From assembly GCA_964500005.1 (NCBI GenBank), contig CAZCMP010000002.1, positions 128,934-192,933 of the forward strand: DNA of 64,000 bases. Reading direction: 5' to 3'. The notes under the pieces were generated by a model. The model did not search any database. It saw nothing but the letters and a program-made list of their open reading frames with translations, and was not told the origin of the DNA. A program made the position numbers and the translations under genes. Below, in pieces: positions 43,710 to 63,695 of this stretch (its first letter is position 1; the number at the start of each line of letters is the position of its first letter). The DNA comes from an uncultured Thermococci archaeon (GTDB taxonomy: Archaea > Methanobacteriota_B > Thermococci > Methanofastidiosales > Methanofastidiosaceae).

Positions 43710-43836
43710 ATGCTCTACCTCACTAAAAATTAATTTCGGTTAATATTTATTATATGTTTCTTTTATTTAAGTTTTTCTAGAATTAATCATTAAATTTAAA
43801 TTTGTTTTAGATATCAATTTTCTGGAGAGTAAAAAA

Positions 43837-46106: not shown

Positions 46107-47756
46107 TTAGAATATATCTATTGCCCTAGAGAGAACGTTGCTTCCCCTATATTCAGGAAGTATCATGGGTGATTTTCTACTCTCCGGAACGCCTGCTTTT
46201 TTCAGCTGTTCAGAATATTTTGTAATGTGCGAAAGTGTTAGATTTCCAACAGATGCTTTCTTTGCATATCTTGCTGCAGAAATTCCTGCCCTTCTCCCAA
46301 AGACGGAGTAGTCCAGAAGAGAGTTTCCCATTAGCCTGTTCTTTCCATGAACTCCCCCAGTGACCTCTCCTCCAGCAAATAGCCCTTTTAATTCTGTTGC
46401 ACCACTTGCGTCTATCACTATCCCTCCATTTTGGTAGTGCAATGTAGGGAATACGAGTATTGGATCTTCAACCATGTTTATGCCAAACCTCTTAAACATC
46501 CTGTACATAGCAGATAGCTCCCTCTCTGTAACGCCTTCTCCTTTCAACATATTAATCATAGGCGAATCAAGCCATACTCCCTGCATTCCAGTCGGAGTTT
46601 CAACACCACCTGCTGCCCCATAACACTCTTTTATGAACGCTGCGCTTTCAACATCCCTTGGCTCAAGGGGGTGTACAAACATTTCCCCCTCTCTGTTCAA
46701 AGGCTGTGCTCCGAGACCTCTGACTTTTTCAGTTATTAATAGACCAACTATTTGTTCCGGGAAAGCGGCCCCTGTTGGGTGATACTGCACAGAATCCATA
46801 TCCCTAAGTCTCGCTCCGCACCTGTAAGCCATTGCAAGCCCATCTGCTGTTGCCCCATAATGATTTGTTGTTGGAAATCCTTGAATATGAAGCCTGCCAA
46901 ATCCGCCTGTTGCCATAACAGTTGCTTTAGCCCTAACGACGTAATATTGGGAGGTCTCGATATTGAAAAGAATGGCTCCAGCTACTTGGCCTTTATCGTC
47001 CATCAAAAGTTCTATTGCAGGTGAAAACTCAACTGCAGGGATTGATAAGTTTATGAATTCATCCCTAATAACCCTGAGTAGCTCCATTCCAGTATAGTCT
47101 TTAGCAGAGTGCATCCTTTTTCTTGATGTGCCACCACCATGGATGGTAATCATTGTTCCGTCCTTTTGCTTGTCAAACATGACCCCTTTTTCTTCAAACC
47201 ATTTTATCAAAGCAGGACCATCAGTAACTAGCGCGTCTACTAGTTCTGGATTATTTGCAAAATGGCCTCCTCCTATGACATCAAGATAGTGGATTTCAGG
47301 AGAATCGTTGGATTTGTCTGCCGCTTGTATCCCTCCTTGTGCCATAATCGAGTTTGAATCGCCGTGCCTTAACTTAGTTGTCATGAGTATATCGTCTGGA
47401 TCTATGCCCTCATACGTGGCCCAGATGCCTGCCATTGTTCCTGCCCCGCCTCCTCCAATAATGAGAAGGTCAACATCATAGTCGATGTTAGAAAGATCAA
47501 TATCTTTTTCAGATATACGGGGATATGCTTCAATTAAATCGGCAACTTCAAATGGAACTATCTCTCCCTTTGAGGAACCAACTGAAAGAGTTCTCTTTAC
47601 CTCGGGTTTGTAGTCTGGATGGTACTTGTTTAGAACATCGTCCCTCTCTTCCATTGACATCTGTTTATACTGTGCTTTGAGTCTTTTCTCCCTGGTCTTT
47701 TCAACCTTCTCAATAGATTCCCTCATAGATTCTGGATAACCTTTAATAAGCTTCAT
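46107..47756 (-). CDS. fumarate reductase/succinate dehydrogenase-type flavoprotein subunit (thiol:fumarate reductase TfrA-like) with ~95-aa N-terminal extension
   Basis: FAD Rossmann DLLIIGGGGAGTMAG, conserved FrdA/SdhA-type segments (…HYGATADGLAMAYRCG…, …HPTG…). Confidence 0.8.
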   Translation of the reverse strand: MKLIKGYPESMRESIEKVEKTREKRLKAQYKQMSMEERDDVLNKYHPDYKPEVKRTLSVGSSKGEIVPFEVADLIEAYPRISEKDIDLSNIDYDVDLLIIGGGGAGTMAGIWATYEGIDPDDILMTTKLRHGDSNSIMAQGGIQAADKSNDSPEIHYLDVIGGGHFANNPELVDALVTDGPALIKWFEEKGVMFDKQKDGTMITIHGGGTSRKRMHSAKDYTGMELLRVIRDEFINLSIPAVEFSPAIELLMDDKGQVAGAILFNIETSQYYVVRAKATVMATGGFGRLHIQGFPTTNHYGATADGLAMAYRCGARLRDMDSVQYHPTGAAFPEQIVGLLITEKVRGLGAQPLNREGEMFVHPLEPRDVESAAFIKECYGAAGGVETPTGMQGVWLDSPMINMLKGEGVTERELSAMYRMFKRFGINMVEDPILVFPTLHYQNGGIVIDASGATELKGLFAGGEVTGGVHGKNRLMGNSLLDYSVFGRRAGISAARYAKKASVGNLTLSHITKYSEQLKKAGVPESRKSPMILPEYRGSNVLSRAIDIF

Positions 47757-47764
47757 AAAAACAC

Positions 47765-48451
47765 CTACTCAATCGACCTCTTCTTGTAAAGCTCCTTTAT
47801 TTCATCCGGCTTCATAGATTTTAACTTTGAAATCTCTTCCTTTGTAATTCCGCTATTAACTTTGGCTACTGCTTCTTCTGTGTGGGCTGCTTTTGGAGCA
47901 ACAAACTTTCCATTAAGCCTTCTTGCAAGTTGCCCAACATGATACTGGGTAATTTCAGCTGGGCATCTAAAAGCACAAAGCCCGCACTGAACACAATCAA
48001 ATGATAGGGTGGCTGCCTTTTCTATATCCCCCCTTAGTGAAGCCTGGACATAATCCATTACCTTTAGCTCCTGTGGACAGACTTTTGTGCAGCTGTTGCA
48101 ACTGATACACCTCGCTATTTCAGGATACTCTTTTAGAAGTGCGTTGTGGGCAATATTGAGTTTTTCCATATCATACTTTTTCTTATTAGCAGGAGTAAAC
48201 GGAAGGTGGACAAGATACATGCCGTCCTCAACGGTGGTCTGGCATGCCAATGCTGATTTTAGCTTATAATCATTCTTTAATCTGTAAATGGTAGCGCAAG
48301 CACCACAAAAGCCAGCTCTGCAACCTGCCCCTCTTGTATACCTGTAGCCTGCATACTCCATGGACTTCATCAGGGTTAAGCCTGATGGAACTTTATACTC
48401 CTTACCCATAATAAATACACTTACCAACGGGATCTGATTTTTTTCAGCCAA
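47765..48451 (-). CDS. iron-sulfur subunit, SdhB/FrdB-like (N-terminal half of a TfrB-like protein)
   Basis: [2Fe-2S] motif GCRAGFCGACA and two CxxCxxCxxxCP clusters (CISCNSCTKVCP, CVQCGLCAFRCP). Confidence 0.7.
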   Translation of the reverse strand: MAEKNQIPLVSVFIMGKEYKVPSGLTLMKSMEYAGYRYTRGAGCRAGFCGACATIYRLKNDYKLKSALACQTTVEDGMYLVHLPFTPANKKKYDMEKLNIAHNALLKEYPEIARCISCNSCTKVCPQELKVMDYVQASLRGDIEKAATLSFDCVQCGLCAFRCPAEITQYHVGQLARRLNGKFVAPKAAHTEEAVAKVNSGITKEEISKLKSMKPDEIKELYKKRSIE

Positions 48452-49339
48452 CTATAACCCCCCTCTTTCTTCAAATTTATTTTTAATAAACATATAATCC
48501 TCCAAATATTTTTCATTGTTCTCTGAAAGAGAAATTCTCAATAATTCTGATAAATAAATAACAGGAGTTTTGTGATTTATTTTTCCTTTTTCAAACAAAC
48601 TCTTCTGTGCAGTTGTGAGATTGTATTGACAAAGTGGGCATGGGGTGACGATTACATCAGCCCCCTTGCTTTGAGAAATACTGACAATCCTCTGAACGCA
48701 ATCTGAGACCGCTTCTTTGTTTGTTATAATCTGATGTGCCCCACAGCACTCAACTGTCATTGGATTCTCAATAACTTCTGCCCCAAGAGCAGAAAGTATG
48801 TCGCCCATAATGTGCGGGGCGTCTTGATCATCTAGTGCGATTGTTTTTGGCCTAAGCAGCATACATCCATAATATGGGTCAACCTTTAGGTTTTTTAGAG
48901 GTGTTTTTACCTTTTCCTTAATTTTTTCAGGGCCTATATCATTATACAATACTTCTAGAAAATGCATGACCTCTATATTTCCTAAATAGTCTTCTTCTGT
49001 ATCCATGAAAAGGTTGACGTTATAGAGCTTGTCCGGATTGTTTTTATACAGCAAATTAACCTGTTTTAAAACGTTGTAGCACATTGAGCAAAGGGTCACA
49101 AGCTTATTAGTCTTAAGCTCCCTTCCCATTTCTTGTGCTCTTATCAGAGTCCTTGTGGCGGACAGATGGTCAGCCATAACATCTGACGTTAAGTTATATA
49201 CAACGCCACAACATGTCCAGCTAGGAAGCTCCTTTAGTTCAAATCCCAAAAGTTTTGCGACTTCAAATGCCGCCTCTTCATCCTTCTTCCCAGTAGTCTT
49301 TAGTGTACAACCTGGGTAATAAGGATACTCCATCACCAT
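48452..49339 (-). CDS. HdrB-like protein with two CCG (Cys-rich) domains
   Basis: Two CCG motifs (WTCCGVVYN…CSMCYN; VECCGAHQ…TPCPLCQYN). Abuts the SdhB-like gene with no gap. Confidence 0.75.
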   Translation of the reverse strand: MVMEYPYYPGCTLKTTGKKDEEAAFEVAKLLGFELKELPSWTCCGVVYNLTSDVMADHLSATRTLIRAQEMGRELKTNKLVTLCSMCYNVLKQVNLLYKNNPDKLYNVNLFMDTEEDYLGNIEVMHFLEVLYNDIGPEKIKEKVKTPLKNLKVDPYYGCMLLRPKTIALDDQDAPHIMGDILSALGAEVIENPMTVECCGAHQIITNKEAVSDCVQRIVSISQSKGADVIVTPCPLCQYNLTTAQKSLFEKGKINHKTPVIYLSELLRISLSENNEKYLEDYMFIKNKFEERGGL

Positions 49340-49737
49340 ACCCCCTTCTTAATTGCGGCAACTATTGCCATCTGGGGTATCTCTTCAATCATCTTTTCTA
49401 TGAATTCTTTGGAGTAGATATTTATGAAATCTTGATTATTTCTAAGCATGACGTTTCTCAAAGCTTCCATTATCTTTGCTATGTCAACGCTTCTTGGGCA
49501 TCTGGCAGAGCAGGTAAAACATGCTGCACATACCCAGAAGGTATTTTGGTCTAAGACTTCAAGATCGCCTATTTGGACAAACCGTATTACTTTGTTTGGG
49601 GCCATGTCCATACTGTCAACAACTGGGCAAGTTGCTGAGCATTTTCCGCACTGATAGCACTGGAATATATTCTGTCCCGATATCTCTTCAACAGCTTTTC
49701 TTAATTCCAATCCTTTCTCAGAAACGGTAAAGACCAC
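49333..49737 (-). CDS. HdrC-like 2x[4Fe-4S] ferredoxin subunit
   Basis: CYQCGKCSATCP and CAACFTCSARCP. Confidence 0.65.
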   Translation of the reverse strand: MVFTVSEKGLELRKAVEEISGQNIFQCYQCGKCSATCPVVDSMDMAPNKVIRFVQIGDLEVLDQNTFWVCAACFTCSARCPRSVDIAKIMEALRNVMLRNNQDFINIYSKEFIEKMIEEIPQMAIVAAIKKGVW

Positions 49738-51194
49738 TATATGCCCCTCCCAATCCTCTTGACAATCTCCATTTTCTTATTATACACCGATATCTCAATA
49801 GGTGATGTTCCAGGAAGGCAGTGTGTGGCACATGCAAAGCATGGGTCATAAGCTCTAAAGGCCATCTCTACCTTGTTTAATATACCATCATTGACTTTTC
49901 CGTTTCTAATCATGCCCTTTGCTGCGTCCCTTACAGACATGCATATGGCACCAGCATTGTTTGTGGTGGCGACTATCATATTTGCTTTCTCAATCGTTGC
50001 ATCCTCTGTTAGCTTGTAATGGTGGAATAATGTTCCCCTTGCAGCCTCTACTACCCCAACTCCTTCCGTTGGGAGGCCAACTTTGTTCCTAAGATCCTGC
50101 TTTAGAACATCCTTATCCCTAACAAGCTCCAAGGCCCTTTCAGAAACATATAGCAGCTCTATCAGCCTCGCCCAGTGGAAGGCGAGTGTTGAGTTCACAG
50201 GTTTTCCGAGTGTTTCAATCAACTCCTTGTATGATTCATTTGCGAGAGGTGTTGAGAATCCATCAATAACATTAATCCTACCCAATGGCCCAACGCGGTA
50301 GACCCCACTTTCAACACCACCTACAAGCCCTTTCCATCCAATATCTTTTAGATATGGGAACTTCATATAGGTCCAAGGCTCTACATGCTCCTCTATATAG
50401 TTGGCATAATCTTTTGCTTCAAAGCAAGCATACTCCTCATCTAGCGGACTCTTTACCCTTACCATTCCATCATAGAAGTTAAGATTGTTATTTTTATCTA
50501 CAAGCCCCATATTGTAAGTTTCAAGTGTATACGCATCACTTTTTATAAGGTCAAGATATCCCTTATTCTTTAGAACTGTATCTTTAAAGAAGTTTAATGA
50601 AAATTCAGAAAATTTAACGCAAGACTCGGCCATTTGCTCAATATCATTTCTTTCCTCTTCGTTCAGCCCTTTTGATATCCCACCGGGAAGCCCGCATACA
50701 GGATGTGTCGGTTTGCCGCCGAGGATCTTTGTTATCTTCTGACCATATGCCCTGTGCTTTATGACCTCTTTTCCTATCTCAACCCCAACTTTTCCTATAA
50801 CGCCTATGATGTTTCTATCACCTTTTGGAGCATCTGGCCCCACAACAAAGTCGGGCCCTCCAAGGAAGTAGAAGTGAAGTATATGGTCATATATAACGTA
50901 ACCACAGTACATTAACTCTCTTAGTTTTTTTGCAGTTTCTGTTGGCTCGGTATCAAAGGCAGCGTCCAAAGCTTTAGTTGAGGCAAAATGGTGGGCCACG
51001 GGACATACCCCACATATCCTTGAAGTAATCTGTGGCATATCTTCTGCCAATCTTCCTTCACTAAACTTCTCAAATCCTCTAAGCTCCGGTATCTGAAGAT
51101 AAGCATTTTCAACGTTACCTTTATCGTTTAGAAATATCTCTATTTTGCCGTGTCCTTCAAGTCTAGTTATCGGGTCAATTGTAATTCTTTTCAT
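49737..51194 (-). CDS. mvhA: [NiFe]-hydrogenase large subunit (F420-non-reducing hydrogenase MvhA-like)
   Basis: N-terminal Ni-ligand RICGVCPVAHH and C-terminal DPCFACATH motif; Cys, not Sec. Confidence 0.85.
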   Translation of the reverse strand: MKRITIDPITRLEGHGKIEIFLNDKGNVENAYLQIPELRGFEKFSEGRLAEDMPQITSRICGVCPVAHHFASTKALDAAFDTEPTETAKKLRELMYCGYVIYDHILHFYFLGGPDFVVGPDAPKGDRNIIGVIGKVGVEIGKEVIKHRAYGQKITKILGGKPTHPVCGLPGGISKGLNEEERNDIEQMAESCVKFSEFSLNFFKDTVLKNKGYLDLIKSDAYTLETYNMGLVDKNNNLNFYDGMVRVKSPLDEEYACFEAKDYANYIEEHVEPWTYMKFPYLKDIGWKGLVGGVESGVYRVGPLGRINVIDGFSTPLANESYKELIETLGKPVNSTLAFHWARLIELLYVSERALELVRDKDVLKQDLRNKVGLPTEGVGVVEAARGTLFHHYKLTEDATIEKANMIVATTNNAGAICMSVRDAAKGMIRNGKVNDGILNKVEMAFRAYDPCFACATHCLPGTSPIEISVYNKKMEIVKRIGRGI

Positions 51195-52162
51195 TTTATC
51201 ACCTTTCTCTTAATAAAGGATGAAGCAAGTGAATATCTGTAAAATGTCCCAACTGGATCCTTAATTTTAGAAACAAGTTCCTCTACCTTTTTCTCGTCTA
51301 ACTCTAACTCATTTTCAACTGCAAGTACTGAAGCTAGTGCTGATATCATCTTTGCACCTTGATCAGTTACCTCAGGGGTCTTGCCAAAGCAACCGGTACA
51401 AGGCATATTTCCTTTGATGCACTGATGGCCACAACCCGACCTTGTTGCAGGCCCCATGCATATTATGCCCTGATCAAGGAAACACTTTTCTGGGTCAGCT
51501 TCCTTCTCATAGACCCTGTAAATTGTTTCTATCATTTTGTCCTTCTTTTTCCTTGGGCAGTCATCACACAAAGCCTTTACAGGTGCTAAAACTGCACCTT
51601 TTGGCGGTAGATCGCCAGTCAAGAATTTAGTAAAGGCATCCTCCACAATATTTGGAGTTGGGGGGCACCCAGGTATATAATAATCAACATCAACAACCTG
51701 ATCAAGGGTCTTTACCGTATCGTAAAACTCAGGTATGTGAATCTCCCCTTCCTTGACTTTAAAAGAAGGTGTGGGCAAAATATTGTCTTTATTTACTGTT
51801 GTTTCAGTTTCCTGGTACGCCCTATCAAATATCAGGTTTTTGTTAAATAGGTTAGCCAGCGCAGGTATGCACCCTTCATGTGCGCAGGAGCCAAATGCAA
51901 CAAGGAGCTTAGATTTTTGCCTAAGTAACTTTGCAAGCTCTTCGTTTTCACTAGTTCTTATAGCCCCATTAAAAAAGCAGACATCAATAGACTTGTCCTT
52001 CATTTTTTTGAGATCTTCGTACTTGGTGTCCATGGCAACAGGCCACATCAGAATATTTGCTTTTTCAATTACATCTAGTATTTTTTCATTAATATCTAAA
52101 ACAGCAATCTCGCAGCCACCACATGAAGCGGCCCAGTAAAATGCTATGTTGGCTTTACTCAT
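51191..52162 (-). CDS. mvhG: [NiFe]-hydrogenase small subunit (MvhG-like)
   Basis: N-terminal YWAASCGGCEIA proximal-cluster motif and further Cys ligands. Confidence 0.8.
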   Translation of the reverse strand: MSKANIAFYWAASCGGCEIAVLDINEKILDVIEKANILMWPVAMDTKYEDLKKMKDKSIDVCFFNGAIRTSENEELAKLLRQKSKLLVAFGSCAHEGCIPALANLFNKNLIFDRAYQETETTVNKDNILPTPSFKVKEGEIHIPEFYDTVKTLDQVVDVDYYIPGCPPTPNIVEDAFTKFLTGDLPPKGAVLAPVKALCDDCPRKKKDKMIETIYRVYEKEADPEKCFLDQGIICMGPATRSGCGHQCIKGNMPCTGCFGKTPEVTDQGAKMISALASVLAVENELELDEKKVEELVSKIKDPVGTFYRYSLASSFIKRKVIK

Positions 52163-52581
52163 TTTGATTCCTCCATTTTAAGTGGAGATGGTCCTATCTC
52201 CTTAAGTTTGATAACCATATCATTGACAACATTCCTAAATTTGTTTCCTTCACTTGCCGAGATCCACTCTAATCTTAACCTTTCTTCTTCTAATCCCATA
52301 TCTTTTAACATCATTTTAAGAAGTTTTACTCGTCTAAGTGTTTTGTAGTTACCTTGGGCGTAATGGCAGTCCCCGGGATGACACCCCCCAACAAGGACCC
52401 CATCTGCACCTTTGGCAAAGGCATCTAGAATAAATGATGGGTCGACCCTTCCTGAACACATTACTCTTATTGGGACGGCATTTGGTGAGAATTTTAATCT
52501 TGAAACACCTGCAAGGTCTGCCCCTGCATAAGTGCACCATTTGCATAAAAAGGCTATAATTTTCGGTTCAAACTCATTCAT
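52159..52581 (-). CDS. mvhD: MvhD-like [2Fe-2S] hydrogenase/heterodisulfide reductase linker subunit
   Basis: 140 aa, Cys-containing (…FLCKWCTYAGADLAG…CSGRV…GGCHPGDCHY…), located between hdrA and mvhG. Confidence 0.7.
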   Translation of the reverse strand: MNEFEPKIIAFLCKWCTYAGADLAGVSRLKFSPNAVPIRVMCSGRVDPSFILDAFAKGADGVLVGGCHPGDCHYAQGNYKTLRRVKLLKMMLKDMGLEEERLRLEWISASEGNKFRNVVNDMVIKLKEIGPSPLKMEESK

Positions 52582-52586
52582 AAAAT

Positions 52587-54572
52587 CTACTCCAGTATGA
52601 CCTCAATCATCTTAAACATATTCTTAGATTCATCATTTCTCATTGTGGCAGCGCCACTTGGGCAAGCCGAAGCACATGTACCGCAACCCTGGCATAGCGC
52701 TTCATTTAATTTTGACCTCTTTATTTCCTTGCCATCTTTATTTGTAATCTCTGCCTCCAATGCTCCGTAAGGGCAAAGGGCGATACAGACCCCGCAACCG
52801 CTGCAAACATCCTCATCTATCTGACAAATCAAAGGCTCTTTGTGAAGGAAATCTGATGAAAACATCGAAAGGACTTTTGATGCTGCTGCTCCTGCCTGGG
52901 AAACTGATTCAGGTATGTCCTTTGGCCCTTGTGCTGCTCCAGCAAAGAATATGCCTGATGTCATGCTTTCAACTGGCCTTAACTTTGGATGCGCCTCCTT
53001 TAAGAATCCGTTTTCATCTAAGGATATTTTCAGTTTTTGTTTGATGTCAGCTATCCCTGATGAAGGCTCTATTGCCATAGCCAAGACCGCAAGATCAGCT
53101 TTCACTTCGACCTTTTTGCCAGTGAGGGTATCAACGCCCCAGACAATGACCTTATCGCCGTCTTCAAAGATTTTTGAAACTTTCCCCCTTGTGTAAAGGG
53201 CATGGTCCTCTTCTGTTGTCCTGTAATAAAACTCCTCATAGTCCTTTCCGGCAGTTCTAACATCAATATAGAAGACATACGCATTCCCATCGTGAACCTT
53301 GTGCTTGAACAGCATCGCATGTTTTGCTGTGTACATGCAACATATCTTTGAGCAGTAAGGCTTGTGCTCCTCTATATCCCTTGATCCTGCGCACTGGACG
53401 AATACAACATCCTTAACAGGCTTGCCGTCAGATGGCCTTACAATCTCCCCGCCTGTGGGGCCTGAAGCGGATAAAAGCCTCTCAAACTTGAGTCCGCTTA
53501 TAACATTCGGATACCGTCCTCCCCCATAGTCTGAAAGATTTTGAACAGGATATTCTTGGTAGCCTGTTGCAACAACAATTGCGCCTGCATCAACTTCAAT
53601 TATTTCCTCCTTCATATCAAAATCAATTGCCCCTAGCTTACATGTCTTTTCACAGATTTTGCATATCCCCTTAGTATAGTAAATGCAGTTTTCTCTGTCA
53701 ATTACCGGTTTGTTCGGAACAGCCTGCGGGAATGGTGTGTATATGGCCTTTCTTTTAGAAAGACCCTCTTGAAACTCCGAAGGAACTTTTACAGGACACT
53801 TTTCGTAGCAGTCACCGCAACCTGTGCAAAGGTTCCAATTGACAGATGTAGGCTTTTTCTTTATCTTAACTTTGAAGTTTCCAACATATCCTGTAACGCC
53901 CTCAAGTTCTGAGTATGTCAAGAGCTCAATGTTTGGATGATTAGAAGCCTCCACCATCTTGGGAGTTAGAATGCATTGGGAGCAGTCAAGTGTTGGAAAA
54001 GTCTCTGATAGCTTCGCCATCTTTCCCCCAATCGAAGAATCCCTTTCGACAAGGTAGGTCTTGTAACCGCCATTTGCAATGTCAAGTGCAGCCTGTATTC
54101 CTGTGACACCGCCACCAATGACAACGGCCTTCTTTGTGATTGGAACTTCTATATCTGTAAGGGAATTATCATTTTTTACCTTTTCAACGATGCTTTTAGT
54201 GATCTTGATTGCCTTTTCTGTAGCCCTATCCTTGTCTTCATGAACCCAGCTGCAGTGCTCCCTTATATTAGAAATCTCACACTGGTATGGGTTTAGCCCT
54301 GCATTTTTTGAGTTGACGCGAAAAGTTTTTTCATGTAATGTGGGAGAGCATGCGGCAACGACAACACGGTCAAGTTTTTCCTTTTTGATTGTCTCCCTCA
54401 TGAGCTTTTGACCGGGATCGGAGCACATGTAGATATAGGTGCCCGCGTATGCGACACCTTCCATTTTGGATACCTCTTGGGCAACTTTCTCAACATCAAC
54501 TGTTCCGGCAATGTTGGAGCCACAGTGACAAACAAAAACACCTACCCTAGGGGAAGAAGAGTTAGCATCCAT
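52587..54572 (-). CDS. hdrA: heterodisulfide reductase subunit A (FAD, multiple [4Fe-4S])
   Basis: N-terminal Cys cluster VFVCHCGSNIAG, FAD fold VVIGGGVTGIQAALDIA, internal and C-terminal ferredoxin motifs (CTGCGDCYEKCP; CSGCGVCIALCP, CQGCGTCASACP). Confidence 0.85.
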   Translation of the reverse strand: MDANSSSPRVGVFVCHCGSNIAGTVDVEKVAQEVSKMEGVAYAGTYIYMCSDPGQKLMRETIKKEKLDRVVVAACSPTLHEKTFRVNSKNAGLNPYQCEISNIREHCSWVHEDKDRATEKAIKITKSIVEKVKNDNSLTDIEVPITKKAVVIGGGVTGIQAALDIANGGYKTYLVERDSSIGGKMAKLSETFPTLDCSQCILTPKMVEASNHPNIELLTYSELEGVTGYVGNFKVKIKKKPTSVNWNLCTGCGDCYEKCPVKVPSEFQEGLSKRKAIYTPFPQAVPNKPVIDRENCIYYTKGICKICEKTCKLGAIDFDMKEEIIEVDAGAIVVATGYQEYPVQNLSDYGGGRYPNVISGLKFERLLSASGPTGGEIVRPSDGKPVKDVVFVQCAGSRDIEEHKPYCSKICCMYTAKHAMLFKHKVHDGNAYVFYIDVRTAGKDYEEFYYRTTEEDHALYTRGKVSKIFEDGDKVIVWGVDTLTGKKVEVKADLAVLAMAIEPSSGIADIKQKLKISLDENGFLKEAHPKLRPVESMTSGIFFAGAAQGPKDIPESVSQAGAAASKVLSMFSSDFLHKEPLICQIDEDVCSGCGVCIALCPYGALEAEITNKDGKEIKRSKLNEALCQGCGTCASACPSGAATMRNDESKNMFKMIEVILE

Positions 54573-54617: not shown

Positions 54618-54710
54618 AATTTAAACGTTTTGGTTATAGGGAATAGATTATGCCAAATATTAACCAATAAATAAAGTTATTTTCGGATAAAATTGACAAT
54701 AAGTTTAATT
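54618..54710. promoter_or_regulatory. bipartite conserved upstream element, copy A (18-nt module + 43-nt module), ~96 nt upstream of the hdrA start
   Basis: aatttaaacgttttggtt (54618-54635) and taaataaagttattttcggataaaattgacaataagtttaatt (54668-54710) recur at 56532-56549 and 56581-56623 with 17/18 and 42/43 identity and the same internal spacing. Confidence 0.5.
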
Positions 54711-54742
54711 TTCCCGTATATAAAAGATATAAAAATTTATTT

Positions 54743-56482
54743 TTAAGAGTTGCCAATTTTTTTAAGCTCCCCGTTATGGAAAGCATATACGGTATTGATA
54801 AAAGAAGGTATTTCAGGATCATGTGTTATCATGATCAAAGTTTTATTTTTGCAAAAATCCCCTACATTCTCCAAGAGTAAATTTTTAGTGTCCAAATCCA
54901 AGTGGGAAGTTGGCTCATCCAATATCAAAATTTCTGGATCCTCCAAAAAAACTCTAGCTAGGGCAATACGTTGTTTTTGACCACCAGATAATTTAGAGCC
55001 TCTGTCCCCAATTATATACTCATAAGACATCCCTTTTTTATTCACAAAGTCATTGCAGCACGCCAGTTTGCACGCATTGTTCAATTTATCCTTCTTTGTG
55101 TCTTTTTGGCCCCAAGTAATGTTTTCTTCAATTGTTCCGTAAAATAGGTACGGGTCTTGCCCCATCCAACTTAAGATTTTATGCCAACTTTCTTTTTTGA
55201 TTTTTTGTATAGGTATGGTGTCTATAGTCAATTTGCCTGATTTAGGGTATATTAACCCCAAGATTAAATCAATTAGGGTGCTCTTGCCAACACCTGTTGG
55301 CCCAAAAATAGCAATTTTATCCCCTTTGTTTATAGTCAAATTAACGTTTTTTAGAACGCTCTTATCTGAATAGCTAAAATTGACATTTTTGAATTCAATT
55401 TTGTCATTGAAACTATTGATTTCTGTATCGCCGTCTTTTTCAAGATTCTTAGAGCCTTCGTTAATCAATGCATCAACTGCATTCATCGAAGGGATCTCAA
55501 ATTTGATTCTGTAATACTCAGTTTGAATTGATTTAAGATCACCGCTTAGCTTTAAGAAAACATATATCATTATTCCAATGACAGATATCGGTACATAAAA
55601 ATAAGTCATAGTTATGTAAATTATTATTAAGATCGGAACAAAGTTAGCAGGTTCGTGCAGATAAGTAACATAATTCATTTTGTCATTCATTTCATACCTT
55701 ATCTTTGACAAATACTCTGTTTTTTCATAAAGGAGTTTTCTAACAAAATTTTCTTTAGACATTGACTTGATGTTCTTAAGGCCATCAAGAGAGGCCAGAG
55801 TTTCTTTCATGAAGAGATTTCTTTGGCTCAGGATAGTTGACCCGCTGTATCTGGCATTTTTTACTAGCCTACCCAGTACCAGAGTAACTCCGCCTATAAC
55901 TAGAAAGATCAGTATTGTAATCTTAAAGGACAATAAAAATAAAAGAATAATATAAACTAACAAGAGAAATATCAAAGGAAGTAAATTTAGTGTCCTAAGG
56001 TATACATCCCTATCCTTTTCTATTTCATTTGTAAGGATGTTTGTTATGTAACTTCTCATAGACCCGTTAATGAAAACCCAATCGGAATACAGGATTATAT
56101 CGCATATCTTTTTCCTTCTGCTTATTTCATACCACAGCTTCTCCTTGTTTATCAATGAAGCCAAGAGGATATTTATCAACGCTTTTGAAATAAAAATTAA
56201 CGCGATCCCAATAAAAAGAGAAAGTACCGTATATTCTACATTTATAAGAGAATAGATTCTTTTTATATAGGATATAATCTGAATATTAACCTCTGTAGAC
56301 TGATTTAATATTTGCTCTAGAGCTGGCACCAATAAACTAATTGACAGCATCTCAAAAAAACTTACAACTATGGACAATAGAATTATTATTATCGATTGTT
56401 TTTTTCTTTTCTTGAATAAGCTTCTGATGACAGACCTTACCGAATATTTTTCAGAAATTGTGATATCTTGATTTAATACCAT
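54743..56482 (-). CDS. ABC exporter, fused transmembrane + ATPase domains
   Basis: 6-TM N-terminal domain; Walker A GPTGVGKSTL, signature LSGGQKQRIALAR, Walker B ILILDEPTS. Confidence 0.8.
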   Translation of the reverse strand: MVLNQDITISEKYSVRSVIRSLFKKRKKQSIIIILLSIVVSFFEMLSISLLVPALEQILNQSTEVNIQIISYIKRIYSLINVEYTVLSLFIGIALIFISKALINILLASLINKEKLWYEISRRKKICDIILYSDWVFINGSMRSYITNILTNEIEKDRDVYLRTLNLLPLIFLLLVYIILLFLLSFKITILIFLVIGGVTLVLGRLVKNARYSGSTILSQRNLFMKETLASLDGLKNIKSMSKENFVRKLLYEKTEYLSKIRYEMNDKMNYVTYLHEPANFVPILIIIYITMTYFYVPISVIGIMIYVFLKLSGDLKSIQTEYYRIKFEIPSMNAVDALINEGSKNLEKDGDTEINSFNDKIEFKNVNFSYSDKSVLKNVNLTINKGDKIAIFGPTGVGKSTLIDLILGLIYPKSGKLTIDTIPIQKIKKESWHKILSWMGQDPYLFYGTIEENITWGQKDTKKDKLNNACKLACCNDFVNKKGMSYEYIIGDRGSKLSGGQKQRIALARVFLEDPEILILDEPTSHLDLDTKNLLLENVGDFCKNKTLIMITHDPEIPSFINTVYAFHNGELKKIGNS

Positions 56483-56531
56483 TCAATCAGCTAAACAGCA
56501 AACTAATTATATATGCCAATTTTTATGTTTT

Positions 56532-56623
56532 AATTTAAATGTTTTGGTTGTGGGCATGTAAGGCGCCGAATAATAATTATTAAATAAAGATATTTTCGGA
56601 TAAAATTGACAATAAGTTTAATT
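56532..56623. promoter_or_regulatory. bipartite conserved upstream element, copy B, ~99 nt upstream of the ABC exporter start and in the divergent region shared with fumA
   Basis: See copy A; same order, orientation and spacing of both modules. Confidence 0.5.
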
Positions 56624-56819
56624 ACTCCGGATAAAATGTTTAACGTTTTATCTGTTAAATGAAAATATGTAAGATATTTTCACATTATTTGATTTTTTAA
56701 GGTATTAAGTTTGTGATTTTTATACAAATGCCCAAAATATTATAGATATTTGTATAAACAATATCTTTTTAAAGTGAAAAAACAATACATATACGGAACT
56801 CTCTTTTTCGGGGGATTAT

Positions 56820-57701
56820 ATGATAGATGAAACCCTAGTAAAAAATACGGTAATTGAACTTCTAAGGGACTCATCAACGAAGCTTCCTTTAGATGTCAAA
56901 AATGCCTTGAACAAGGCGTATGAAATCGAGGAAGGGCCGGCAAAGGCCCAGTTAGAGGCCATATTAAAGAATATAAAAATGGCTGAGGAGTCTTCAACGC
57001 CACTTTGCCAGGATACTGGCGTCCACATATTTTTTGTTAAATTAGGGGACATTGGAAACCCTAAACTTGAGAAAAGATTGCCAAGCATTATCATAGAAGG
57101 GGTGAGGGAGGCCACAAAGAAAGTCCCCTTAAGACCCAATGCCGTTCATCCCATCACAAGAAAAAACCCCGGCGACAATGTAGGGGCTTATATGCCTTAT
57201 ATTAATTTCACGCCGATTGATACAGACTATATAGAGATAACTGCAATGCCCAAGGGGGCTGGGAGTGAAAACATGTCAAAAGTTGCGATGCTAAATCCCT
57301 CTGATGGTCTAAAGGGGATAAAGAAATTTGCACTCGACACGGTAGTTAGCGCAGGATCTAAACCTTGCCCGCCAACAATAATCGGGCTTGGCATCGGGGG
57401 GAGCGCTGACATCTCTATAAAGCTTGCAAAGATGGCATTGCTTAGGCCGATAGACCAGAGGCACCCAGACCCTGCTATAGCTGCTTTAGAAAAAGAGCTT
57501 TTTGATGCTTTTAATGCCCTTGGTATTGGAGTGATGGGTCTTGGAGGAAAGACAACTGTAATTGGTGTCAATGCAGAGCTTGGCTACTGCCACACAGCAT
57601 CACTTCCCGTTGCAATAAATGTCCAGTGCTGGGCAGGAAGAAGGGCAACTGCAAGAATCTATAAAGATGGGAGGGTAGAGCATCTGACCTACAAAAGGTG
57701 A
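56820..57701 (+). CDS. fumA: class I fumarate hydratase (Fe-S hydro-lyase), alpha subunit
   Basis: Motif PLCQDTGVHIFF and Fe-S hydro-lyase alpha architecture. Followed 4 nt later by the beta subunit. Confidence 0.85.
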   Translation: MIDETLVKNTVIELLRDSSTKLPLDVKNALNKAYEIEEGPAKAQLEAILKNIKMAEESSTPLCQDTGVHIFFVKLGDIGNPKLEKRLPSIIIEGVREATKKVPLRPNAVHPITRKNPGDNVGAYMPYINFTPIDTDYIEITAMPKGAGSENMSKVAMLNPSDGLKGIKKFALDTVVSAGSKPCPPTIIGLGIGGSADISIKLAKMALLRPIDQRHPDPAIAALEKELFDAFNALGIGVMGLGGKTTVIGVNAELGYCHTASLPVAINVQCWAGRRATARIYKDGRVEHLTYKR

Positions 57702-57705
57702 TGAT

Positions 57706-58302
57706 ATGGACAAAATACTAAATTTACCGCTTGATGAAAAAACTGTTAGGGATCTAAAGGTTGGAGAGACAGTTTATCTTAACGGGATTTTTTTTACTGC
57801 CCGAGATGAGGCCCACATGCATGCGCTAGAGTATGCCAAGGAGGGGAAGAAGATTCCCTATGACTTCAAAGGTGCGGCAATCTACCACTGCGGGCCCATA
57901 ATGGCAAAGGAAGGAGATAAATGGAGGGCTGTTGCAGCCGGCCCAACAACATCTACAAGGATGAACTCCTTGGAGCCGGAGTTTATCGAGAAGTTTAAGG
58001 TTTCGGCAATAATTGGAAAGGGAGGGATGTCCAAACCCACTGTTGATGCGATGCAAAAGTTTGGTTGTGTCTACCTTGCCATAACAGGCGGGGCTGCAGT
58101 CCTTGCAGCCAAGGGGATCAAGGAAGTCCTTGGTGTAGAGTGGTATGAGCTTGGGATGCCCGAAGCTTTGTGGGTCTTAGTTGGAGATAAGTTCGGCCCC
58201 TTAACTGTTGCAATTGATGCACACGGCAACAGCCTCTATGCTGATGTGGAAAAGGAAGTAGAGAAAAACATACCGAAGGCAAAGGAGATATTAAAGATTT
58301 AA
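57706..58302 (+). CDS. fumB: class I fumarate hydratase, beta subunit
   Basis: ~198 aa Fe-S hydro-lyase beta-type protein (…AIYHCGPIMAKEGDKWRAVAAGPTTSTRM…) directly downstream of the alpha subunit. Confidence 0.85.
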   Translation: MDKILNLPLDEKTVRDLKVGETVYLNGIFFTARDEAHMHALEYAKEGKKIPYDFKGAAIYHCGPIMAKEGDKWRAVAAGPTTSTRMNSLEPEFIEKFKVSAIIGKGGMSKPTVDAMQKFGCVYLAITGGAAVLAAKGIKEVLGVEWYELGMPEALWVLVGDKFGPLTVAIDAHGNSLYADVEKEVEKNIPKAKEILKI

Positions 58303-58311
58303 GGTGATTAT

Positions 58312-59667
58312 ATGGAGAAGTTATCAAAGGAAGATTTGATTAAAAAGGCATCAAAACCTGCAGAAGATGCCATGAAGCTTCACCCTTTTTACAAGGGAAA
58401 GATTGAGATCGCCTCAAAAGTTTGCATAAGGGATTTTTCTGATTTTGCTATATGGTACACGCCCGGAGTTGCGGAGCCATGCAAAGCCATAAACAAAAAC
58501 AAAGAAGCTGTTTTTGATCACACAAACAAGGGAAACGCGGTCGCTGTAGTTTCTGATGGGACAAGGGTTTTGGGCCTTGGAAATATTGGGCCAGAGGCCG
58601 CAATGCCGGTGATGGAGGGAAAGGCCCTACTTTTTAAGTATCTTGGAGGTGTTGACGCCTACCCGATATGCCTTGATACAAGGGATCCAGACAAGATTAT
58701 CGAAACATGCAAACTGATTAAGCCCACATTCGGCGGGATAAATCTAGAGGACATTGAAAAGCCCAAGTGCTTCTTTGTTTTGGACAGACTAAGGGCTGAC
58801 AAAGAAATGGACATACCCGTCTGGCATGACGACCAGCAGGGCACAGCAACAGTTGAAGTTGCGGGCGCCATAAACGCATTGAAGGTCGTTGGAAAGAAAT
58901 TAAATGAGGCGAACATAGTCCTTGTGGGAACTGGGGCTGCAAACATTGCAACTTCAAGGGTCTTAGTTGCTGCTGGTGCAAATAAGAAGAATATTATGGC
59001 AGTTGACTCTAAAGGGATATTGAACGCACAGAGGAAAGACCTTGAGATGGACAGACACAACAACCCCTTCAAATGGGACCTATGTGTCAATTCAAACAAG
59101 GAGCAGAGAAGTGGCGGGATAAAGGAAGCGCTAAAAGGTGCGGACATCTGCATAGCAGCGTCAAAGCCCGGTCCAGACACAATTAAGAGAGAGGAAGTAG
59201 CAGGGATGGCAACTGATGCAATCCTATTTGCTTCTGCCAATCCAATGCCAGAGATATGGCCATGGGAAGCGAAGGATGGAGGGGCAAGGATTGTGGGGAC
59301 TGGGAGAAGTGACTTCCCCAATCAGATCAATAACTCAATAGTATTCCCAGGAATATTCAGAGGTGCATTGGATGTTAGGGCAAAGACCATAACTGATGAG
59401 ATGTGTGTTGCTGCTGCTTTTGAGATTGCAAAGACTGCTGAGGACAAGGGGCTTTCTGATGAGTACATCGTTCCAAAGATGAGCGAGTGGGAGGTATTCC
59501 CAAGGGAAGCTGTTGCTGTTGGAATGAAGGCGATTGAGCAGGGCATTGCAAGGGTGAAATACAATAAAAACGAGCTCTACGAGATTGCTGAAAAGACAAT
59601 CAAAAAAGCAAGGGACGAAACACACATGATGATGAAGCACGGCATAATAGAGATGCCACCTGAATAA
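58312..59667 (+). CDS. NAD(P)-dependent malic enzyme (small prokaryotic type)
   Basis: N-terminal malic-enzyme segment (…LHPFYKGKIEIASKVCIRDFSDFAIWYTPGVAEPC…), NAD-binding LVGTGAANIA, 451 aa. Confidence 0.85.
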   Translation: MEKLSKEDLIKKASKPAEDAMKLHPFYKGKIEIASKVCIRDFSDFAIWYTPGVAEPCKAINKNKEAVFDHTNKGNAVAVVSDGTRVLGLGNIGPEAAMPVMEGKALLFKYLGGVDAYPICLDTRDPDKIIETCKLIKPTFGGINLEDIEKPKCFFVLDRLRADKEMDIPVWHDDQQGTATVEVAGAINALKVVGKKLNEANIVLVGTGAANIATSRVLVAAGANKKNIMAVDSKGILNAQRKDLEMDRHNNPFKWDLCVNSNKEQRSGGIKEALKGADICIAASKPGPDTIKREEVAGMATDAILFASANPMPEIWPWEAKDGGARIVGTGRSDFPNQINNSIVFPGIFRGALDVRAKTITDEMCVAAAFEIAKTAEDKGLSDEYIVPKMSEWEVFPREAVAVGMKAIEQGIARVKYNKNELYEIAEKTIKKARDETHMMMKHGIIEMPPE

Positions 59668-61941: not shown

Positions 61942-62430
61942 TTATTTATTAAAAGTTAAGAGTAGCTTGTTCCTGAATCTTGTTATCTCGTTTTCATTTA
62001 ATGAATCAATAAATCCAATAATCTCTGAATTAAAAGATTCGGCAACTTTAATCATTTTTTCTAGCTCCTCTTTAGTAACATGAAAATCTACGTAATACTG
62101 ATTGTCAATCCTTTCTCTTTTTGCTTTTTCTAATTCTCTTGTGTCTATCCCAAAGATGCCTTTTAGAAGGATTATGCTAGCTGTATGATTCTCACATTTT
62201 AATCCAATTCTATAGAAAAGAGCCAAAACTGAATGGTACATAGAATAATAAGTCAACGCGATTGAATCATTTAGATTTCCTGTGCCGGCTAAAATTTTTG
62301 AGGACGCCAAAGACTCTTCAGACCTTTTGAGATAAGCATTTTTAAGATTCTCACTTGGCTCGATTATCTGAATCTTTTTCTCATCGATTAGCCTAGATAA
62401 AAAATCTGTTTTTTTCATAAAATTGTTCAA
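61942..62430 (-). CDS. HEPN-domain protein (putative toxin/RNase partner of a nucleotidyltransferase)
   Basis: ~160-aa all-helical protein overlapping the upstream HTH-nucleotidyltransferase gene by 38 nt (typical HEPN/MNT pair). Confidence 0.5.
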   Translation of the reverse strand: MNNFMKKTDFLSRLIDEKKIQIIEPSENLKNAYLKRSEESLASSKILAGTGNLNDSIALTYYSMYHSVLALFYRIGLKCENHTASIILLKGIFGIDTRELEKAKRERIDNQYYVDFHVTKEELEKMIKVAESFNSEIIGFIDSLNENEITRFRNKLLLTFNK

Positions 62431-62941
62431 TTCCTTTTAGGATTATATGATTAACCTCTATCTCTTTTATTAATAAGTTTTCTCTATCGTATCTACCTAT
62501 TTTAACGCTTAATCTCGAATCTATTGTCTCAATTTCTTTTTTTAAATCGAGGTTTTCTGATTCTATATAAAGGTCTATGTCGCTTGATTTGTTGGGAATG
62601 CCTTTTGCGTATGATCCGAATATTATTGCCATTGGGATATTTTCTTTTTCTATTATCTTTTTGATTACCCCTTTTAGTTTAGGGTATTTTTCCAAAAACA
62701 AAATAAGGCTATAGCTTTCAGACATTACGACAAAACTTCTTGCCTCTAAACTTTTCTTAATATAATAAACATAATTCTTTCCTTCTACCCTATAGTCAAC
62801 TATGTTTTTTTTGTATAGCTCGTCAAGCCTTCTTTTAACTGAAGTCTGGTTTGTTTTTAGTTTTCTTGCTATTTCTCGGATATGATTCTCTCCTTTTATA
62901 AGTGCGAGGATTATTTCATAATCGTTACAATTTTGTAACAT
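62393..62941 (-). CDS. wHTH + minimal nucleotidyltransferase (MNT, Pol-beta superfamily) protein
   Basis: NTase motif AIIFGSYAKG…SDIDLYIE and N-terminal HTH (…ILALIKGENHIREIARKL…). Confidence 0.65.
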   Translation of the reverse strand: MLQNCNDYEIILALIKGENHIREIARKLKTNQTSVKRRLDELYKKNIVDYRVEGKNYVYYIKKSLEARSFVVMSESYSLILFLEKYPKLKGVIKKIIEKENIPMAIIFGSYAKGIPNKSSDIDLYIESENLDLKKEIETIDSRLSVKIGRYDRENLLIKEIEVNHIILKGIEQFYEKNRFFI

Positions 62942-63092: not shown

Positions 63093-63695
63093 ATGTATAA
63101 TTTATTAAACAATTCTCTTGGTATAACAGAAAATGGTTTGAGAATTCTTTCTTTATTCACTATTAGTTATAAAAAAGATTTTTATATTAGGGAGATAAAC
63201 AGAGCGCTTAACATAAGTCCAAGAACTTCACAATTGATACTTGATGACTTGGAAACTAAAGGTATTTTGGAATCAATAACTCGTGGAAAAATAAAAACAT
63301 ACGCCTTGAGAAAAAATCAGACAAGCGAATACTACCTTACGTTGGCTGAGGCGTACAAAACAACACTATTCATGGAAAATAATCCCCTAATAAAAGAAGT
63401 TATAGAAAGAATTCTTCCGCTTATATCTGGGATTGGTATTATATTTGGGAGCTATGCAAAAGGAGAGCAAAGAGGGGGCTCTGACCTTGATGTCTTTTTA
63501 GTAGGAGATGCAGACAATAAAAAAATAAGGGATATTTCAAAAACATATGGGATTGATATTAATTTGATTACTTACCCTTTAGAGAAATACAAATCGGCTA
63601 TAGATAAAGATATATTCCTGAAGGAGGTAATAGAGAATCATATAGCGATTTCAAACATTGACGGATTTGTATCCTCGGTGATGAAAAATGGGTAG
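63093..63695 (+). CDS. wHTH + minimal nucleotidyltransferase (MNT) protein, paralog, divergently oriented
   Basis: NTase motif IIFGSYAKGEQRGGSDLDVFLVGD. Same architecture as the 62393-62941 gene. Confidence 0.65.
   Translation: MYNLLNNSLGITENGLRILSLFTISYKKDFYIREINRALNISPRTSQLILDDLETKGILESITRGKIKTYALRKNQTSEYYLTLAEAYKTTLFMENNPLIKEVIERILPLISGIGIIFGSYAKGEQRGGSDLDVFLVGDADNKKIRDISKTYGIDINLITYPLEKYKSAIDKDIFLKEVIENHIAISNIDGFVSSVMKNG

Follow-up and report, generated by a model that had tools for sequence, protein, structure and literature searches.

A 64-kb stretch of contig CAZCMP010000002.1 from an uncultured methanogenic archaeon of the Methanofastidiosaceae, Candidatus Methanofastidiosum (referred to below as the window, meaning the whole stretch that was analysed) contains two copies of a bipartite sequence element. 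One copy lies upstream of hdrA, the first gene of a heterodisulfide reductase/hydrogenase (Hdr/Mvh) operon, and the other lies upstream of the adjacent gene for an ATP-binding cassette (ABC) exporter. The element is best explained as a duplicated archaeal promoter region of ~110 nt, with one copy for each of the two adjacent transcription units. Each copy would comprise a predicted core promoter preceded by a putative transcription-factor binding array, and the two copies, as direct repeats, would have mediated the loss of the exporter gene in some relatives. From comparison of the sequences, a probability of about 0.6 is assigned to this explanation as a whole.

A duplicated bipartite element upstream of two transcription units

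Each copy of the element is built from an 18-nt proximal module and a 43-nt distal module. These are found at 54618-54635 and 54668-54710 on the hdrA side, and at 56532-56549 and 56581-56623 on the ABC side. The letters at these positions match the description in the initial annotation, which had reported a duplicated element at matching distances from two minus-strand genes, and the element is real: its coordinates, the agreement between copies (17/18 for the 18-mer and 42/43 for the 43-mer), its spacings and the names of the genes all check out. The two modules are 50 nt apart, start to start, in the hdrA copy and 49 nt apart in the ABC copy, and the 43-mer lies 96 nt and 99 nt, respectively, from the start codon. 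The window has two occurrences of a 33-nt exact core where dinucleotide shuffles predict 0.00, and the module pair is the top and sole long direct repeat of the 64 kb (repeat family D1, 72 nt, 85%). Gapped alignment widens the homology to ~110 nt, extending from a CGG-containing box at about -145 to a TATA-like box. Between the 43-mer and the 18-mer, and also in the 5′ leaders, the two window copies are dissimilar.

The 18-mer is predicted to be the core promoter of each unit, with a transcription factor B recognition element (BRE) and a TATA box in the form AAC-N-TTTAAAT. On the minus strand the hdrA module (54618-54635) reads AACCAAAACGTTTAAATT, with the TATA-like box TTTAAATT at 54618-54625, and the ABC module (56532-56549) reads AACCAAAACATTTAAATT, with the TATA-like box at 56532-56539. 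The composite sequence AACCAAAAC(G/A)TTTAAATT is oriented towards the gene in both cases, and the TATA-like box precedes the start codon by 46 nt (hdrA) and 50 nt (ABC). The same form, AAC-N(0-1)-TTTAWAW, is also present upstream of other genes. It occurs 10 times in the window, with 8 of the 10 occurrences in the 6.5% of sequence that is intergenic and 5 of the 10 (both copies studied here included) at 24-50 nt before a start codon in the correct orientation; this enrichment and placement are the grounds for the prediction. Since the 18-mer follows the promoter consensus of the genome, part of the 17/18 identity between the copies is generic.

Conservation, distribution and concerted evolution

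Loci of relatives (numbered with the prefix L) were gathered by exact protein look-up, by a metagenome scan and by a pattern scan of genome collections, and the same neighbourhood was found in many assemblies. The clade that includes the window consists of five species (the window organism, L003, L006, L007, and the species represented by L012, L107 and L122), in which fumBA is divergent from the ABC gene and the latter is followed by hdrA-mvhDGA-hdrCB. The module is found at both sites in all five. A deeper clade (L008, L013 and L014), with ABC 81-83% identical, also has fumBA divergent from ABC, followed directly by mvhGA; its locus is without hdrA, mvhD, hdrCB and the tfr-like genes. The 18-mer is near-invariant in all orthologues, and the ABC promoter box is kept in ABC orthologues, with the similar sequence GACCCAAACGTTTAAAT in the deep clade.

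Mean pairwise identity among the five species is 0.76 and 0.73 for the two intergenic regions, and many columns within the modules are invariant. The corresponding value at 4-fold degenerate sites of hdrA is 0.485, which is judged to be near saturation for an AT-rich genome. Because intergenic identity is well above this value, the promoter regions are, on the evidence of the alignment, under purifying selection.

A profile of the distal region built from sequence alone (model R1) gave 69 and 67 bits for the two window copies, with the next best matches at 11.4 and then 9.7 bits. Across 117 kb of relatives' loci the profile gave two matches in each window-clade locus that has ABC, one match in each locus that lacks it, and no match in the deep-clade loci. 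The partial match of 9.7 bits (43725-43763, minus strand; E 0.058, GC 0.13) is in the leader of a gene for a 162-aa protein of unknown function that adjoins DUF2226 and the hydrogenase maturation protease HycI, and it is probably a chance match in AT-rich DNA. A scan of one genome per prokaryotic species with the 20-mer TTATTGNCAATWTTATCCGR returned 73 matches. Five are of Methanofastidiosum type, at one locus each, and the other 68 are scattered, mostly in bacteria including many Bacillaceae, and presumably unrelated to the element. Roughly two dozen Bacillaceae genomes (Neobacillus, Peribacillus, Metabacillus, Priestia, Bacillus and relatives) match this 20-mer, which is above scattered chance; these matches probably lie in a conserved gene and have no relation to the archaeal element.

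The initial annotation had suggested a shared promoter or operator acting as a regulon signal. The first part of this suggestion is borne out by a proximal module in the BRE/TATA form of the genome and a distal module kept at both positions in five species, and the element is indeed shared by two adjacent units. The wider regulon is not: no further copy was found in the 64-kb window or the 117 kb of relatives' loci with the profile, and the Methanofastidiosum-type genomes in the scan with the strict 20-mer had a single locus each.

The two window copies also appear to have been homogenised. Over the 45 alignment columns of the distal core they agree at 42/45, while each agrees with any orthologue at only 22-39/45; the ABC-side core, for instance, is 33-39/45 identical to its own orthologues against 42/45 to the hdrA copy. 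Within-genome identity of the two copies is 39/45 in L007, 33/45 in both L003 and L006, and 26/45 in L012. The window spacers, the 5′ flank of the first distal box and the 5′ untranslated regions (5′UTRs) follow their positional orthologues instead, and two derived states are found only in both window copies. This pattern is the signature expected of a short gene-conversion tract confined to the distal cores.

A three-box array in the distal region

The distal control region of hdrA extends over 54651-54729 on the minus strand (profile score 66.9 bits), with the 43-mer at 54668-54710 as its core. It contains the boxes ATACGGG (54713-54719), TATCCGA (54683-54689) and TATTTGG (54653-54659), spaced by 30 nt, together with ATTGTCAAT at 54692-54700 and the TATA-like TTTATTTA at 54668-54675. 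The equivalent region of the ABC gene, also on the minus strand, extends over 56564-56642 around the core at 56581-56623 (69.2 bits), and its boxes are TATCCGG (56627-56633), TATCCGA (56596-56602) and TATTCGG (56566-56572), 31 and 30 nt apart. In an alignment of ten sequences (five species, two positions each) the conserved stretches are a first box ending in CGG, TTATTG-N-CAAT-(T/A)TTATCCG(A/G), TTTTATTTA(T/A)T and TAATATT(C/T)GG.

Periodicity was measured by a self-similarity scan. The mean for the ten sequences has a sharp maximum at offsets of 30-33 nt (z about 4-5); elsewhere it mostly stays within ~2 SD of the value for shuffles and is always below +2.5. Tandem Repeats Finder found nothing in the region, because the ~31-nt units are too diverged. 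The ~80-nt distal region thus appears to consist of three imperfect ~31-nt units, each ending in an (A/T)T-N-CGG-type box, and the boxes would therefore be presented on one face of the helix, as their 30-31-nt spacing in both window copies implies. With regard to dyad symmetry, ATTG-N-CAAT is confined to ABC-type copies and ATTTT-N5-AAAAT is confined to the window. The small inverted repeat ATTTT-CGGAT-AAAAT, to which the initial annotation had drawn attention, is consequently a peculiarity of the window that is not kept in orthologues. Two candidates for the operator, this dyad and a LysR-type T-N11-A box, were rejected on a negative scan for conserved palindromes.

The most likely role of the distal region is that of a shared transcription-factor binding array. 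It lies outside the core promoter and is conserved across species: five have it at both positions, and the genomes with a single copy have it too. Comparison of the loci shows that the duplication arose in the ancestor of the clade containing the window organism and is retained by purifying selection. In the proposed mechanism, the hdrA copy would drive the hdrA-mvhDGA-hdrCB-tfr operon immediately downstream and the other copy would drive the ABC exporter gene, with transcription predicted to start ~20-25 nt before each start codon. A putative transcription factor may bind the three boxes co-operatively and set the activity of both core promoters, in which case the exporter and the heterodisulfide reductase/hydrogenase operon would be co-regulated. 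Activation is likelier than repression, because the array is upstream of the BRE/TATA.

Several observations weigh against a binding array. No transcription-factor gene was found in the neighbourhood of the locus, the sole helix-turn-helix (HTH) match in this search for a regulator being within a nucleotidyltransferase/HEPN pair. The palindrome scan of the ten-sequence alignment found no conserved palindrome or dyad half-sites of the sort that might mark a binding site. The intergenic regions are well conserved as a whole and not in the modules alone, so that the boxes are not singled out, and the AT-richness throughout makes short motifs weak evidence. A strict single 20-mer, used as a genome-wide test, could also miss diverged copies. 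Finally, the distal TTTTATTTA could itself be a TATA box, and few stretches of the module are as well conserved as TTTTATTTA(T/A)T.

This last observation is the basis of the main rival, in which the distal TTTTATTTA is a second TATA box and TATCCGR, just upstream of its BRE position, is the factor site. Tandem promoters would give each unit two transcription starts and would place the 18-mer inside the ~70-nt leader of the longer transcript. The deep clade offers some precedent in its mvhG promoter, where TTATCCGG is found 12 nt upstream of the TATA-like ATATATAAA. Yet TTTATTTA is without the AAC-type BRE seen at the other promoters of this genome, the distal elements of L012 and L006 depart from the TATA-like motif (reading TCATATTA and TTTTTTTA), and one extra promoter leaves the 30-31-nt phasing of three boxes unexplained. 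Tandem promoters are clearly the less probable reading of the distal region.

It is rather improbable that the upstream part of one copy is a non-functional passenger that looks conserved through gene conversion from the functional copy. Gene conversion is evident in the window lineage, and the wide range of within-genome identities, from 26/45 in L012 to 42/45 in the window, could be taken to suit such a remnant. However, the most diverged hdrA-side copies (L003, L006 and L012) keep the boxes, the spacing and a TTTTATTTATT-like stretch while 4-fold sites are near saturation, and the single copy of the genomes without ABC is retained intact.

Conservation of a module at a fixed distance upstream of two coding regions might equally be expected of a transcribed structured leader, such as a riboswitch or an attenuator. 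A cis-regulatory RNA of this kind is very unlikely here: no Rfam family matches at the element (Rfam finds only a tRNA in the window), the RNAalifold consensus has a free energy of -1.98 kcal/mol with 7 pairs and no compensatory change, the 5′UTRs proper are unrelated between the two units, and a good BRE/TATA is found downstream of the distal module. The binding array upstream of each core promoter is the preferred reading, and the consequences of its duplication for the gene between the copies are considered below.

Repeated loss of the ABC exporter gene

In every lineage that has it, the deep clade without the distal module included, the ABC gene sits between fumAB and the mvh genes. Its nucleotide divergence between lineages (6-29%) is on the same scale as that of the flanks, though not identical. 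Judged by position and divergence, the ABC genes are old residents of the locus and not recent arrivals.

ABC is absent from L049/L105, L055 and L123/L125/L126, in which fumA is followed by a single region of ~334 nt with one module and then by hdrA. L049 and L105 are two independent metagenome-assembled genomes (MAGs), and L123, L125 and L126 are assemblies of separate sequencing runs. Because the same junctions recur in independent assemblies, and because the longest exact match between the two L003 copies is ~17 nt (ACCAAAACATTTAAATT, by eye), mis-assembly of these junctions is unlikely.

The single regions are chimeric, with an ABC-type 5′ part and an hdrA-type 3′ part. In L105 the 5′ flank of the first box and the distal core are ABC-type (43/45 to the ABC copy of L003 versus 33/45 to its hdrA copy) and the leader is hdrA-type (44/45). 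Its spacer agrees at 20/31 with the hdrA copy of L003, at 16/31 with the ABC copy of L003 and at 24-26/31 with hdrA-side spacers of other species, placing the switch after the distal core. In L055 the flank of the first box and the spacer are ABC-type (29/31 to the ABC copy of L007), and the switch to hdrA type is inside the 18-mer. In a tree of the 2,850-nt fumA-fumB-malic enzyme block, rooted on the deep clade, which has ABC, L105 is sister to L003 and L055 is sister to L007, both with 100% bootstrap and both next to a lineage that retains the gene.

With the segment absent, one chimeric repeat kept, and the direction of change polarised by these sister pairs and by an outgroup that has ABC, the simplest reading is that the direct repeats recombined and so removed ABC, on at least two occasions and probably on three. 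The copies would mediate a homologous pop-out deletion of ABC that leaves one chimeric promoter region before hdrA, and at least two such deletions would be independent since the crossover points differ. L123 is a separate, distant species within the window clade whose placement has only 70% support, and the number of deletions is made uncertain by exchange of DNA between lineages around the locus, as indicated by incongruent trees of the two flanks: fumA groups L007 and L055 with L107/L122 (100%), and mvhGA groups L055 with L105 and L003 (100%). The hdrA gene of L007 is 90% identical to that of L003. These data suggest that species have recombined, the breakpoint being close to the promoter modules. 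The ABC gene of L003 (6001-7752) is 93.9% identical to that of L006 (6001-7749) with flanks at about 86%, and it is 79.8% identical to that of L007, below the flanks (86-90%). Such values, like the incongruent trees, are compatible with exchange of the ABC segment via the flanking modules, but they are not a demonstration of it.

As an alternative, the initial annotation had proposed that a duplication or insertion brought in the ABC gene and left the element as its footprint. Of this, only the duplication is borne out, and it is ancient; the events that can be seen are losses of the gene. A recent insertion between fumAB and the hdr operon, duplicating target or promoter sequence, could appeal to the direct repeats that flank ABC and to the relatives that have fumA next to hdrA with a single module, like an empty site. 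Those 'empty sites' are chimeras with differing junctions, and the lineages without ABC are nested within lineages that have it (100% bootstrap). In addition to the position of ABC in the deep clade and its divergence, no close ABC homologue is found outside the genus, and the 29 neighbouring proteins that were scanned, from about 35 to 64 kb of the window, contain no domain of an integrase, transposase or recombinase, all of which makes a recent insertion highly improbable. An att-like site-specific recombination cassette was likewise considered and rejected, as the junctions without ABC differ and the same 29 proteins have no recombinase domain. Least probable of all is a dispersed, MITE-like mobile element (named by the initial annotation as the finding that would overturn a regulatory signal, and tested for here), since the two near-identical short copies in AT-rich intergenic DNA that might suggest one are the only copies in the window, map to one locus per Methanofastidiosum species genome scanned, are syntenic in all species, and have no terminal inverted repeats or target-site duplications apparent from the sequence and an inverted-repeat scan.

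One of the MAGs without ABC, 'Methanofastidiosum sp. SO_2016_LW2_109' (L055), also has an hdrA gene (3401-4039, minus strand) that is shortened to 212 aa and runs straight into mvhD. The encoded protein has CHCDSN in place of CHCGSN and GGGIAEIQ in place of GGGVTGIQ, and a cysteine is lost from LDCSQC. In this genome, hdrA looks like a decaying gene.

Genes of the locus and neighbouring features

The hdrA gene (52587-54572, minus strand) is the first gene of an operon at 46107-54572 on the same strand that encodes, in order, hdrA, mvhD, mvhG, mvhA, hdrC, hdrB, an Fe-S protein and a TfrA-like flavoprotein. The operon is tightly packed, with most neighbours overlapping by 1-7 nt or lying 5-8 nt apart and a largest gap of 42 nt. 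The window HdrA is 92-93% identical to homologues within Methanofastidiosum, after which the best matches are at ~65%. Those ~65% matches that carry names are all bacterial (Fermentibacteria, Aegiribacteria, Marinimicrobia, KSB1 and Zixibacteria), and none is from another methanogen. A homologue search did not identify hdrA in the deep clade, identities dropping from 92% to 65% (bacterial). The genes that come next in the deep-clade locus (AMP-binding, DUF6125, DUF2226 and HycI) are the same as in the window.

The ABC exporter gene (54743-56482, minus strand) encodes a protein of 579 aa with fused permease/membrane and ATPase domains. The protein matches Pfam ABC_tran and scores under every NCBIfam cutoff. 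Among its homologues, identity falls from 81% to 30% outside Methanofastidiosum, and the close ones are named Methanofastidiosum.

Divergent from ABC on the plus strand is the fumA-fumB-malic enzyme unit (56820-59667), the synteny of which is kept in all relatives examined. This unit and the ABC-side module share a 337-nt intergenic region. In the part of it that separates the fumA promoter from the distal module, the window (56719-56758) and the equivalent fumA-ABC region of relatives have a conserved motif, ATTTGTATAA, and its complement, TTATACAAAT, arranged as inverted repeats. In L122 these form a perfect 10-nt pair 45 nt apart, and in the window they form adjacent 20-nt arms. They could serve the divergent fumA unit as an operator of its own.

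Elsewhere in the window, a gene with a HEPN domain overlaps a nucleotidyltransferase gene with an N-terminal HTH, and a second nucleotidyltransferase gene is divergent; these genes, at 61942-62941 and 63093-63695, look like HEPN/MNT-type toxin-antitoxin modules. Two very large adjoining open reading frames on the minus strand, at 15805-20259 and 20269-25173, encode products of 1484 and 1634 aa.

Relation to known systems and biological significance

That homologous recombination between direct repeats can delete the intervening DNA, and that duplicated sequences can undergo gene conversion, is general and well established. The Methanofastidiosum locus conforms to both mechanisms, in that the repeats bracket a gene, derived genomes without the gene keep one chimeric repeat, and each copy resembles the other copy of its genome more closely than its orthologues, as in concerted evolution generally. 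The case differs from the usual ones in that the repeats are short (18-nt and ~45-nt blocks within ~110 nt) and are promoter regions, not insertion sequence elements or rRNA operons, and in that loss has recurred in separate lineages of an uncultured archaeal genus.

A comparable arrangement of control signals is known from Methanococcus voltae, in which the vhc and frc hydrogenase operons have a shared intergenic control region subject to a selenium response in which the LysR-type factor HrsM takes part. Both cases involve operons of methanogens that are related to hydrogenase and Hdr functions, and in both there are conserved upstream elements outside the core promoter and one signal for two units. 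The vhc/frc signal is a single intergenic region between two divergent operons, whereas here the region is duplicated in tandem. Moreover, there is no sequence similarity between the two systems, no LysR-type gene is nearby, and the T-N11-A-like dyad of the window copies is not kept in orthologues.

For the predicted architecture, the closest parallel is found in archaeal promoters that have an upstream activating sequence (UAS). Ptr2 of Methanocaldococcus jannaschii binds upstream of the TATA box and recruits the TATA-binding protein (TBP), and TFB-RF1 in Pyrococcus furiosus and the UAS for HhpR in Pyrococcus yayanosii are further cases (PMC11705074). As at these promoters, a conserved and repeated element lies ahead of the BRE/TATA described here, at about -60 to -140, a position that by analogy would favour recruitment of TBP or transcription factor B. 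The differences are that no regulator gene adjoins the element, that there are three direct units phased at ~31 bp in place of one or two palindromic sites, and that binding and activation in the present case are predictions.

Literature searches turned up nothing on promoters or regulation in this lineage and no description of the motif or its setting, and the Methanofastidiosa lack a cultured representative (PMC7302380). The kind of element and the mechanisms are already familiar, and the general significance is accordingly modest. A more speculative extension, to which only a low probability is given, is that a putative regulator, with the phased three-box array as its operator, couples Hdr/Mvh/Tfr energy conservation to a lineage-specific exporter, and that the exporter gene is a dispensable pop-out cassette, lost and perhaps regained according to habitat. 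If true, this would be coupling in a methanogen that lives on methylated thiols, in which the exporter might, for example, remove the thiol left after demethylation, and the cassette would perhaps be regained through the conserved flanking modules.

For the biology of Methanofastidiosum, the analysis defines a conserved cis-element before the central electron-bifurcating Hdr/Mvh operon in a lineage without described gene regulation, and the positions of the boxes offer targets for mutation and a bait for the putative regulator. The locus is also a clean natural example of a duplicated promoter that evolves in concert and causes repeated loss of the gene that it brackets. Such losses account for the patchy presence of the ABC exporter in Methanofastidiosum genomes, with its absence being real rather than a gap in binning.

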